NCBI GenBank assembly: GCA_050950765.1
Contig: JBMNIF010000003.1
Coordinates: 644,980-708,979, forward strand
Direction: 5' to 3'
DNA from: Bdellovibrionota bacterium
GTDB taxonomy: Bacteria > Bdellovibrionota_C > UBA2361 > JAAYZI01
DNA: 64,000 bases
Below are positions 15,676-23,476 of the stretch, piece by piece. The notes below the pieces were generated by a model that worked only from the letters and a program-made list of their open reading frames with translations, made no database searches and was not told where the DNA came from. Positions within the stretch are counted from its first letter, which is position 1. Each line of letters starts with the position of its first letter. Position numbers and translations under genes: made by a program.

Positions 15676-16902
15676 ATGAAAACTCAAGGCTACGCAAAAA
15701 GTGATATCGGTTTAGTTCGCCCTCATAATGAAGATTACTACATCTGTAACGATAAATTGGGGCTTTATATCGTATGTGACGGAGTCGGAGGAAATGCCGC
15801 AGGTGAGGTAGCTTCAAAAACTGCCGCAGAAACCACACAAAGTTACATCTCACAACACATTAAAGACTTAGACGATATAAAAGAAAACAGAGAAGCCGCA
15901 CTTATAAAACTGGTAGAAGACGGTATTCAGGAAGCGTGCGCCACAGTTTATAAATTAGCTCAAGAAAATAAAACATTCTCCGGCATGGCGACGACCTTAA
16001 CTCTACTCCTTATTAGAGACAGTAAGGCCGTTATGGGTCATGTTGGAGATAGTAGACTTTATCTAAAAAGAGGCGAGAGTGTTAACCAACTTAGTAATGA
16101 CCACACCTTCGTCAATGAACTTTTTCAACAAGGTTGTATCTCTGAAGAAGCTTTGGAATCTAGTCCTTATGCCAACGTTATTACACGCTCTATCGGACAC
16201 GAACCGTGTGTTCAGGTTGATACACTACTCTTCGACACCCTACCACAAGACCTCTTTTTACTTTGTAGTGATGGCTTTACAAAAGAGCTCTCTCCAAAAA
16301 CGGAGCTACCATCACTTTTAACTACGGAATCCCTTAAAGACCTCCCTGATAAATTAATCACGGTGGCAACAGAAAGAGGAGGACACGACAACTGCACCAT
16401 CGTGATCATTGAAAACACTATTATTGATGATTCGACAGAAAACAGATCTAAAGTTGAAGAACATACTAAAGAAGTTATGTTACGTTTGGGCACCCTCAAG
16501 CAACTTAACCTCTTCCAGAGCTTAACACTACGCGAACTCTTAACCGTAATGGAGATAATCTCCGTAGAACAGTGTCCAAAAGGAACAAAACTCATTACAG
16601 AAGGGGCAGAAGGAAGCTATCTTTACATTATCCTTGAGGGAGAGTTCTCAGTCAGTAAGTGCGGTCAACACCTTTCAACATTAGGTAGCGGAAAACATTT
16701 CGGCGAGATGGCACTCCTTAACAACAATCCACGCACAGCGACCGTTACTGCCGAAACAGACGGACGTATGCTAGTTATTGAACACCAAAGTTTTCAACGG
16801 CTACTCACACAACACAGTGATATCGGCGTGAAACTTCTGTTCCGTTTAGCAAATGAACTTTGTAAGAGACTGGATGATGCTAACCTACACGCCATCAGTT
16901 AA
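15676..16902 (+). CDS. PP2C/Stp1-type Ser/Thr phosphatase fused to C-terminal cyclic-nucleotide-binding domain
   Basis: NED, VCDGVGG, HVGDSR, CSDG, GGHDN; C-terminal FGEMALL...PRTATV. Confidence 0.9.
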   Translation: MKTQGYAKSDIGLVRPHNEDYYICNDKLGLYIVCDGVGGNAAGEVASKTAAETTQSYISQHIKDLDDIKENREAALIKLVEDGIQEACATVYKLAQENKTFSGMATTLTLLLIRDSKAVMGHVGDSRLYLKRGESVNQLSNDHTFVNELFQQGCISEEALESSPYANVITRSIGHEPCVQVDTLLFDTLPQDLFLLCSDGFTKELSPKTELPSLLTTESLKDLPDKLITVATERGGHDNCTIVIIENTIIDDSTENRSKVEEHTKEVMLRLGTLKQLNLFQSLTLRELLTVMEIISVEQCPKGTKLITEGAEGSYLYIILEGEFSVSKCGQHLSTLGSGKHFGEMALLNNNPRTATVTAETDGRMLVIEHQSFQRLLTQHSDIGVKLLFRLANELCKRLDDANLHAIS

Positions 16903-21317: not shown

Positions 21318-22127
21318 TTAAAAAGAGATAACTTGCGCTTTTCCACCATTAAAGACGGTGTAGCCTTTAAAACCCACCGCCTTAAGTTGTTCAAAGATTA
21401 TCTCAAAAAAAGCTGCGATATCTGCAGCACGGTGTGCATCGGATCCTACTGTAATCAACTCTCCACCCAACTCTTTATACCGTTTAATAATATCAAAATT
21501 AGGATGCGGAGTGTTTAAGCCGTAAAGAAAACCAGAAGTATTAATTTCAATCCCTTTACCACGCTCAATAAGAGCCGTTAAAACTTGATCTATCAGAGTA
21601 GCATACTTTGCGTATGAATATCCCTCATTTTTATGCGGCGCATAACGCACAATGTAATCAAGGTGCCCGTAGACATTAAATCCGGAAAAGGCTTTAATAT
21701 TTTCAACGATAGATTGAAAATAACGCGTAATGACCTCTTCTTCACTTCTATCTCTCCAGAAAGATCTCTCATACGGATCCCGCATATCCAAAAGGTGTGA
21801 AGAGCCGATAATAAAATCAAAGTGATATGCGTTGATTAAATTGCTATACCGTTCTGCAAGGTGCGGCACTAACCCCAACTCAATTCCACGTAATATCTCG
21901 ATCTTTGCACCATAGATACCCCTTAACCTATCAACTTCTGCAAAATACGCTTCTAGATCAGTTTCAAATATTACACCCTCATCTAACGGATAATCGTAAT
22001 CAATATGCTCTGTAAAACAGATCTGTTCTAAGCGTAGTTCAATAGCACGCTTAACCATATTTTCCATCGGTTCCGTACTATCCGCAGAAAAGTTGGTGTG
22101 CAGATGATAATCAACCTTTATCGACAT
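21318..22127 (-). CDS. PHP-family (HisJ/HisK-type) histidinol-phosphatase
   Basis: DYHLHT, FTEH, GHLD, IEINTSG, GSDAH; start MSIKVD at 22127. Confidence 0.85.
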   Translation of the reverse strand: MSIKVDYHLHTNFSADSTEPMENMVKRAIELRLEQICFTEHIDYDYPLDEGVIFETDLEAYFAEVDRLRGIYGAKIEILRGIELGLVPHLAERYSNLINAYHFDFIIGSSHLLDMRDPYERSFWRDRSEEEVITRYFQSIVENIKAFSGFNVYGHLDYIVRYAPHKNEGYSYAKYATLIDQVLTALIERGKGIEINTSGFLYGLNTPHPNFDIIKRYKELGGELITVGSDAHRAADIAAFFEIIFEQLKAVGFKGYTVFNGGKAQVISF

Positions 22128-22165
22128 CTCGTTGTCTCTCCCCTTTACACATACCCACAAGGCAT

Positions 22166-22191
22166 AAAAAAACGCGGACTATGCCGCGTTT
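22166..22191 (-). terminator. Rho-independent terminator after the RRM-S18 gene
   Basis: AAACGCGG-actatg-CCGCGTTT hairpin with A-run (U-tract on minus strand). Confidence 0.65.
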
Positions 22192-22232: not shown

Positions 22233-22781
22233 CTACGATCTAAAAGGCATCAGACCTACATTCTGCGCACGTTTAATCGCCTTAGCGATCTTCCTCTGAT
22301 TATAAGCTGTTAATCCTGTTAAACGACGCGATAGAATCCTGCCTCTTTCACTAACGAAACGTGAAAGCACTGCTACATCTCTGTAATCTATGGTTTTGCT
22401 CTGATCCATTAAAAACGGATCCACCTTGCGATGACGTTTAAAAAGCTGCATCCTCTGAATAGGCGGCAGTGATTCTCTCTGACGACGCTCACCACCACTA
22501 CCCGAAGAGGCTTTATTATCTTCCCAACTACTCGGCTTACCACGATCGAAGCAGACCTTCATCGGGCGACCGTTAATGACCTTACCATCTAACTCATCGA
22601 TAGCCTTCTGAGCAGCTTCCTCGTTTGTCATCTCAACAAAAGCAAACCCCTTGGAGCGCTGGCTCTCTCTATCAGTCGCAATAACAACATTTACACAAGA
22701 ACCAACCTTATCAAACATCTCTTTAAGAGTGTCATTGGTGACATCAAAATCTATATTACTAACAAATAATTTACTCTTCAT
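22233..22781 (-). CDS. rpsR: Fusion: N-terminal RRM RNA-binding domain plus C-terminal 30S ribosomal protein bS18
   Basis: RNP2 LFVSNI, RNP1 KGFAFVEM; S18 motifs [37 protein letters not shown]. Confidence 0.9.
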
Positions 22782-23149
22782 CGTGTTACTTAATAATAAA
22801 CAAAAAATAGCGACAAAACGCCTACATAGAGCGTAATCATATATAAGAGTATTAAAATAAAGTCAAGACAGGGCAGCCATCAAAAGCGATGCTAAGAGGT
22901 TGATTTCTATTAAAACCCCCCTACTTTTTCAAAACACGATTTTGCAACATAGAACACGGCGAATAAAAAAAGTAATTTAAAGAGAAAAGTTTGTGTTTTT
23001 CAACACTTAATCACCAATTCGTGCAGATTCTATCTTGACCTTTCTTAGTTTAAACAGCTAAAAGCTGTCTTGTGCCGAAATTGTAGAGATTTCTTGCACC
23101 TATCGATTAACTTCCCGTCTTTACGTTTTTCAATAGAGAGAAGAAAAGT

Positions 23150-23476
23150 ATGAGTAATTCTTCAGCAGTTAATAGGTTTTCATCTGATCGTGAAGAAGAT
23201 ATTGATGCATCATCGCCCGTTAAACCAGAACGCAACCTCCTTGCCGCTGTATTAGCAAGAGCAATTTGCGATGCTTTCGGGACGGCGCATTGTGAGCGTC
23301 ACGTCGTTCGCGGTGCCAGACAGTGGTTGTTCGGCAAGCTTACCCCAAAAGAGCCCTTTAGTTTCGCTTGGGTCGCCTTGCATTTAGATTTAGATCCGAT
23401 CTCATTGCAACAGAATTTACACGGCTACGAAGCAAATCCTGAAGAGATTCAAGATCGCTTATCCCTCTTACGATAA
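23150..23476 (+). CDS. Hypothetical protein (108 aa)
   Basis: ORF with purine-rich RBS region, followed by hairpin at ~23528-23560. Confidence 0.7.
   Translation: MSNSSAVNRFSSDREEDIDASSPVKPERNLLAAVLARAICDAFGTAHCERHVVRGARQWLFGKLTPKEPFSFAWVALHLDLDPISLQQNLHGYEANPEEIQDRLSLLR

Follow-up and report, generated by a model that had tools for sequence, protein, structure and literature searches.

In the bacterial ribosome the core of bS18 forms a pair with bS6 at the platform of the 30S subunit, near the site of bS1, with its N-terminus facing the platform cavity and the mRNA exit, and the S6:S18 pair autoregulates the rpsF operon. In one account the N-terminus of E. coli bS18 is described as becoming ordered on, and contacting, mRNA at initiation, and density is reported that is consistent with the extension of chloroplast bS18 (bS18c), an addition made of 7-residue motif repeats and proposed to raise mRNA contact, projecting into the platform cavity (10.64898/2026.07.03.736309); a further source counts bS18 among the exit-site proteins (PMC6133939). 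Other lineage-specific arrangements have been described: in Bacteroidia the anti-Shine-Dalgarno (anti-SD) sequence is sequestered by bS21, bS18 and bS6 (PMC7797042, PMC13000457), with bS18 contacting the 3' tail of the 16S rRNA (PMC7797042), and the chloroplast protein cS22 (PSRP2) carries two RRMs on a polypeptide of its own that is bound to 16S rRNA at the foot of the 30S subunit near h6/h10 (PMC5737520). Free single-RRM proteins, namely Bacteroides RbpA/B/C and cyanobacterial Rbp (model NF058537), form the remaining point of comparison; one study has free bacterial RRM proteins repressing their own genes and reports for those of Bacteroides no effect on ribosome assembly (PMC13370968).

The protein described here joins an RRM to the N-terminus of bS18. 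Like canonical bS18 (rpsR; PF01084, TIGR00165) of the C- form it has a full core scoring over the curated cut-offs, a sole gene copy and a basic N-terminal run, but it differs in having about 100 extra N-terminal residues with the RRM and in being encoded outside rpsF-rpsR-rplI. It shares the fold and the RNP1/RNP2 aromatics of the free Rbp proteins, whereas it scores below the cut-off of their model, falls on a separate branch and has bS18 in place of their Gly-rich tail. It resembles cS22 in placing an RRM within a bacterial-type small subunit and bS18c in its N-terminal addition, which here is a folded domain; as in Bacteroidia, platform proteins have been remodelled in one lineage, but the Bacteroidia system has no RRM and SD sequences are in use in the fusion-bearing source genome. 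It is rare, to our knowledge, for a core ribosomal protein to acquire a complete folded domain and to retain it throughout a phylum. A literature search that covered titles and abstract openings in a collection with few subscription papers found no description of an RRM-bS18 fusion, in agreement with the initial annotation, which knew of none. That annotation had allowed that the architecture might prove common and already characterised; it is common within one phylum, yet uncharacterised, and is apparently an undescribed phylum-wide variant of a core ribosomal protein.

Reading frame and domain architecture

Within the window, by which we mean the whole stretch of 64,000 nucleotides analysed, the fusion gene occupies positions 22233-22781 of the minus strand and encodes 182 amino acids in a frame without internal stop, comprising an RRM, a disordered linker, a conserved extension and a Cys-free bS18 (from the ORF, Pfam, TIGRFAM and a genome search). 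The RRM, delimited by Pfam, AlphaFold2, Foldseek and conservation, spans residues 3-79 (22545-22775, minus strand, as are all parts of the gene), bears RNP2 F6 and RNP1 K44/F46/F48, and matches Pfam RRM_1 over residues 5-74 with 79.8 bits (cut-off 20.7); against NF058537 the fusion scores 85.5 bits, below the cut-off of 100. Residues 83-99 (22485-22535) form a variable Gly/Ser-rich linker, recognised by pLDDT below 50 and low identity, and residues 100-116 (22434-22484), which hold Met111, form a lineage-specific N-terminal extension of bS18, conserved by both identity and dN/dS. The bS18 core at residues 117-182 (22236-22433) contains a match to Pfam Ribosomal_S18 (PF01084) at residues 129-178 with 83.7 bits (cut-off 21), the fusion protein matches TIGR00165 with 73.9 bits (cut-off 38.75), and the best PDB bS18 matches of this part are 5myj and 7nhk. 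Both Cys of the protein fall inside the RRM; residues 83-182 hold none, and the CxxC...C zinc ligands of the C+ form were not found in them, as expected of the C- form. The protein therefore passes both as a bS18, with an S18 domain over cut-off, and as an RRM protein, with an RRM fold carrying the RNP aromatic and basic residues.

These results bear out the initial annotation, which had read here one uninterrupted frame with a complete RRM (RNP1 and RNP2) and a full S18 without Cys. The stop or frameshift in the linker that it had named as a possible flaw is absent: two of the four public sequencing runs compared (X12 and X17) have contigs that run through the entire ORF gap-free and in frame, differing from the window by nine and seven substitutions, every one synonymous, while contigs of a third run (X6) cover it only in pieces. 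The RRM-bS18 fusion is genuine and no assembly artefact. The sole RNA evidence for the gene is a single 176-nt contig of RNA run X19, lying over the RRM part.

An AlphaFold2 prediction built on 149 sequences gave the RRM a beta-alpha-beta-beta-alpha-beta order at pLDDT 84-88, residues 83-97 as disordered (pLDDT below 50), residues 100-120 as extended and the bS18 core with confidence; the pTM of 0.42 suggests that the domains have no fixed mutual arrangement. In Foldseek the predicted RRM superposes on that of hnRNP A18 with an rmsd of 0.9 over 78 columns, and canonical RNA-binding RRMs lie at ~0.9 Å. F6, F46 and F48 are present in all 126 first-type rows, and the 23 rows of the other type have an aromatic residue at position 6 and F46 throughout, with F48 in 96%; judged by these conserved residues, the RRM may bind single-stranded RNA. 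The mean pairwise identity of the linker is 0.18-0.28; in a set of 48 diverse rows it stands at 0.18, compared with 0.53 in the RRM and 0.64 in S18. The spacing from the end of the RRM to the DPF motif ranges from 33 to 70 residues in 71 sequences. In the order to which the window belongs the extension has the motif LPPIQRMQ, replaced by PMGYFRAQP in most of the others, and its residues 103-114 reach an identity of 0.87 within the first type. In 14 disjoint pairs, mostly of one genus, drawn from 73 coding sequences, dN/dS was 0.032 for the RRM, 0.011 for the extension, 0.028 for S18 and 0.048 for the aligned linker; judged by these ratios the RRM is under purifying selection as strong as that on the S18 core. 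Codon bias relative to six reference genes was mixed, with the RRM part at the 99.8th percentile and the S18 part at the 62nd.

Phyletic distribution and genomic setting

The searches by class and by phylum covered the same 124 genomes, and the fusion-bearing lineage is an uncultured one that we take to be the GTDB class UBA2361. An S18 match was found in 116 genomes of the phylum, one apiece, and the RRM is fused to it in 113 of them, comprising 108 full-length matches and five that are broken into two segments, in frames of equal length, and were counted as fused (G018, G025, G026, G032 and G121). The three exceptions are a gene cut by a contig end (G006), a frameshift on a contig with a coverage of 2.9 (G076) and one true loss of the RRM with retention of the conserved extension (L117 = G009:C117, ~2420-2745); the one RRM gene of this last genome groups with free paralogues, and no split-off copy was found in it. 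Database searches returned 391 homologues, and all 120 of those listed carry both domains; the titles of named relatives read Bdellovibrionota, Oligoflexia, Deltaproteobacteria, Proteobacteria or SAR324 MAGs, and one cluster of the ESM Atlas, with 50 members and an automatically assigned bS18 name, combines both domains.

The survey took in the phylum itself and a single outgroup phylum, the one to which a Binatus genome belongs. There S18 was found in 200 of 201 genomes, with two frames of at least 165 aa among the 150 matches listed, and no RRM was present at the 24 rpsR loci inspected, these two included; all 24 have rpsF and/or rplI close by, and most are of the CxxC kind. A profile search of representatives was swamped by multi-RRM proteins (four full-length fusions among the 150 matches listed) and so leaves room for fusions elsewhere. 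The source genome has a second RRM gene, free, with a Gly-rich tail and located away from the fusion. In a tree of 48 RRMs, thinned from 88 and with L074, L116 and L268 excluded, the 31 fused domains are split from 17 free ones, seven of them from the same phylum, on a branch supported at 97/95. An Asp after beta-4 marks 66 of 67 fused RRMs as a type of their own. The picture fits a single origin of the fused RRMs, in an unrooted tree of 82 columns whose bootstrap is unsettled.

A search of the source genome, which is 94% complete, returned the fusion as its single S18 match, which answers the question raised by the initial annotation whether this is the only rpsR; a second rpsR, such as a C- paralogue beside a C+ copy, was found neither there nor in the 116 S18-bearing genomes. 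With no other bS18 to draw on, almost all small subunits should have the RRM. The gene had been described as lying outside an rpsF-ssb-rpsR operon: it does stand alone, but that gene order does not hold here, as rplI begins 85 nt behind rpsF and the gap contains no ssb or rpsR. Among the 31 of 118 rpsF loci of the phylum that were examined, rplI lies 1-167 nt after rpsF in 30, and the remaining locus ends at a contig edge. The source genome also encodes bS6, bS21 and a 569-aa bS1 with six S1 domains, so that both rpsA and rpsU, whose integrity had been in question, are accounted for; six-domain bS1 was found in all five relatives checked and bS21 in 118 of the 124 genomes. As separate observations, bS6 has variable, often acidic C-terminal tails (L112, L136-L165), and bS21 shows, by predicted starts, an apparent charged N-terminal extension in the window's order and in G001/G002 (L113, L198, L204, L205, L212, L214, L217, L219), being short in other orders.

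Signals around the gene and a conserved neighbour

The claim of a stand-alone gene with its own terminator also stands, for the upstream neighbour is divergent, a PHP/HisJ-type gene lies downstream, and an intrinsic-terminator-like hairpin with a U-run occurs at 22166-22191 (minus strand; fold z -2.19, with 4 of 200 shuffles as good), though the hairpin is missing from the output of the consensus scanner. Of 73 fused genes, 42 are followed by an element of this kind, where shuffling predicts 0.6. A pattern search gave a sigma-70-like promoter candidate at 22836-22866 (minus strand), absent from the consensus scan listing for the fusion gene and only a loose match because of its 19-nt spacer; such patterns stand before 39 out of 72 fused genes where 1.0 would be expected, many of the genes in both counts coming from one genus. 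The distance from promoter pattern to start varies from 23 to 166 nt among fused genes, no shared leader was evident by eye, and an Rfam scan of nine loci, including the rpsF locus, gave no match above the gathering score. Immediately behind the terminator the PHP/HisJ-family phosphatase occupies 21318-22160 (minus strand); in relatives it does not feature among the 25 most frequent neighbours. Further away in the window, an ORF at 15676-16902 (plus strand) resembles, by eye, a PP2C phosphatase with a C-terminal cyclic-nucleotide-binding domain.

The divergent neighbour at 23150-23476 (plus strand) encodes an all-helical protein of 108 aa that belongs to no named family. Its gene lies upstream of the fusion in 58 of 67 non-redundant loci, divergently in 42 and co-directionally in 16, with at least one of the 58 (L120) being a paralogue; the next commonest neighbours occur in 27 and 22 of the 67, flank lengths being unequal. 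The family is present in all 124 genomes with one to six matches each, the source genome holding four weaker paralogues, and the protein is 62-85% identical in 32 of 33 aligned relatives. No match at threshold was found in Pfam, NCBIfam or PHROG; the best Z among 48,161 chains in a fold search was 5.0, the top viral look-alikes are uncharacterised phage proteins and the Atlas clusters are unnamed. The 108-aa protein may belong to the same module as RRM-bS18; a complex prediction of the two scored 0.00, which has no bearing either way, and the gene is missing at some fusion loci and also flanks the RRM-less gene of G009. The locus of that genome, which keeps the extension and this neighbour, offers a natural control for RRM loss. 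Contigs of X6, X12 and X17 depart from the window at ~23640 with the same loose end, so the strains differ just past the 108-aa gene.

Possible roles of the tethered RRM

On sequence grounds the fusion is probably incorporated into the 30S subunit with bS6, and the housekeeping-type promoter and terminator patterns at the fused genes support its being a constitutive bS18. The position of bS18 at the exit site, the contact of its N-terminus with mRNA and the tether of 33-70 residues together favour an auxiliary mRNA binder. With roughly even confidence we thus read the fusion as a constitutive 30S protein that tethers, at the mRNA exit, an auxiliary RNA binder for which we infer single-stranded RNA as the ligand. 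The RRM would have been added once to an ordinary bS18 in the ancestor of the phylum, when rpsR left the rpsF-rplI operon; the conserved extension would anchor the tether in the platform cavity, and the tether would let the RRM sweep the platform and the mRNA exit region. There its target could be single-stranded mRNA, either ahead of the start codon or on its way out of the ribosome. With one copy per ribosome, and with bS1 intact, the RRM would work as an RNA chaperone or a standby site, to the greatest benefit of the many genes whose SD is weak or missing. The suggestion in the initial annotation of an RRM tethered at the platform and mRNA exit is thus plausible, given the position of bS18 and the flexible tether; of its S1-like mRNA recruiter, the part that stands as the best inference is an auxiliary role on mRNA beside bS1, and substitution for S1 falls.

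The use of SD sequences bears on this reading and on its competitors. Both 16S genes of the source genome end in the canonical anti-SD, and our own crude ORF calls place an SD motif before a fraction of 0.41 of the 881 confident starts, compared with 0.10 for internal ATGs, so that a genome of the Bacteroidia type, devoid of SD signals despite a canonical anti-SD, is not what is seen. By the same crude calls and in small samples of 27-86 starts, the motif precedes 0.16-0.52 of starts in six relatives, a Bacteroidia control giving 0.06 against 0.10. This moderate to low usage leaves room for help by the RRM in initiation. One small genome with a divergent fusion (G001; L255-L259) shows no SD enrichment (0.16 against 0.14, 45 starts). 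SD-poor initiation can do without the RRM, since G009 lacks it and yet has the motif before 0.20 of 86 starts; nor is there an obvious gap for it to fill, bS1 and a cold-shock protein being present. Two simple reasons for its presence were ruled out: cold-shock proteins are not lacking, being found in 116 of the 124 genomes, and no rRNA deletion occurs near the platform in the 16S region at Rfam positions 511-991, which aligns without insertion or deletion. Long frames with a cold-shock domain are common across the phylum, and the lone cold-shock protein at G000:C4:13291-13476 has an acidic, Ser-rich C-terminal tail.

In a bolder form of the mRNA-binding reading, which we hold tentatively and on the doubtful side, the RRM of every small subunit would serve at the exit channel as an arm that recruits mRNA with sequence selectivity, selecting start sites apart from SD pairing and bS1; if true, such an arm would be loosely like the RRM-bearing initiation factors of eukaryotes.

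It is unlikely that the tethered RRM instead binds rRNA, either the pyrimidine-rich 3' tail of 16S or the pre-16S trailer, as a built-in assembly chaperone or a shield of the idle anti-SD. The contact of bS18 with the 16S tail in Bacteroidia, the seating of the RRM protein cS22 on 16S rRNA and the moderate to low SD use across the phylum speak for it, but SD sequences are clearly used in the source genome, unlike in the Bacteroidia control, and the intact alignment at Rfam 511-991 means that nothing there needs compensating.

Quite improbable is a function off the ribosome, in which surplus RRM-bS18, alone or with bS6, would bind mRNA leaders and balance the rpsR unit against the rpsF-rplI unit. 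Fusion and relocation of rpsR coincide across the phylum, the free RRM proteins of bacteria act as repressors of their own genes and S6:S18 autoregulates the rpsF operon, all of which would suit it; the variable promoter-to-start distances, the lack of a common leader by eye and the empty Rfam scan of the nine loci argue the other way. Very unlikely, too, is that co-expression alone matters, the RRM being a general RNA chaperone made at ribosomal abundance, its position irrelevant or its linker cut: the linker is indeed disordered and variable and the RRM was lost in G009, but apart from this loss and the one low-coverage frameshift no fission was found in 116 genomes, free RRM paralogues already exist, and the fused RRMs have their own Asp signature.

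The strong forms proposed in the initial annotation, in which the RRM takes over from bS1 or identifies a specialised class of ribosomes, are most improbable despite the proximity of the bS1 site: with six-domain bS1 here and in the five relatives the RRM does not replace S1, and with bS21 widespread and one rpsR per genome, here as in all 116, no specialised sub-population is defined through a paralogue. The NCBI call for the gene comprises the last 72 aa only (P0391), starting at Met111, and database entries of 72-75 aa begin at the same Met, which is kept in 89% of first-type rows, whereas JGI/Logan/ENA call the full 182-aa form on 12 contigs. That plain bS18 is made from this internal start, the RRM part being minor or separate, is nonetheless exceedingly improbable, as an SD-like site precedes the Met in none of 46 first-type genes, 15 of 73 genes have no Met in either extension motif and selection on the RRM is as strong as on the core.

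The fusion exposes an annotation blind spot, in that databases label it plain S18 or trim it to 72 aa. For the biology of this phylum, it points to an undescribed handling of mRNA or rRNA at the 30S platform.
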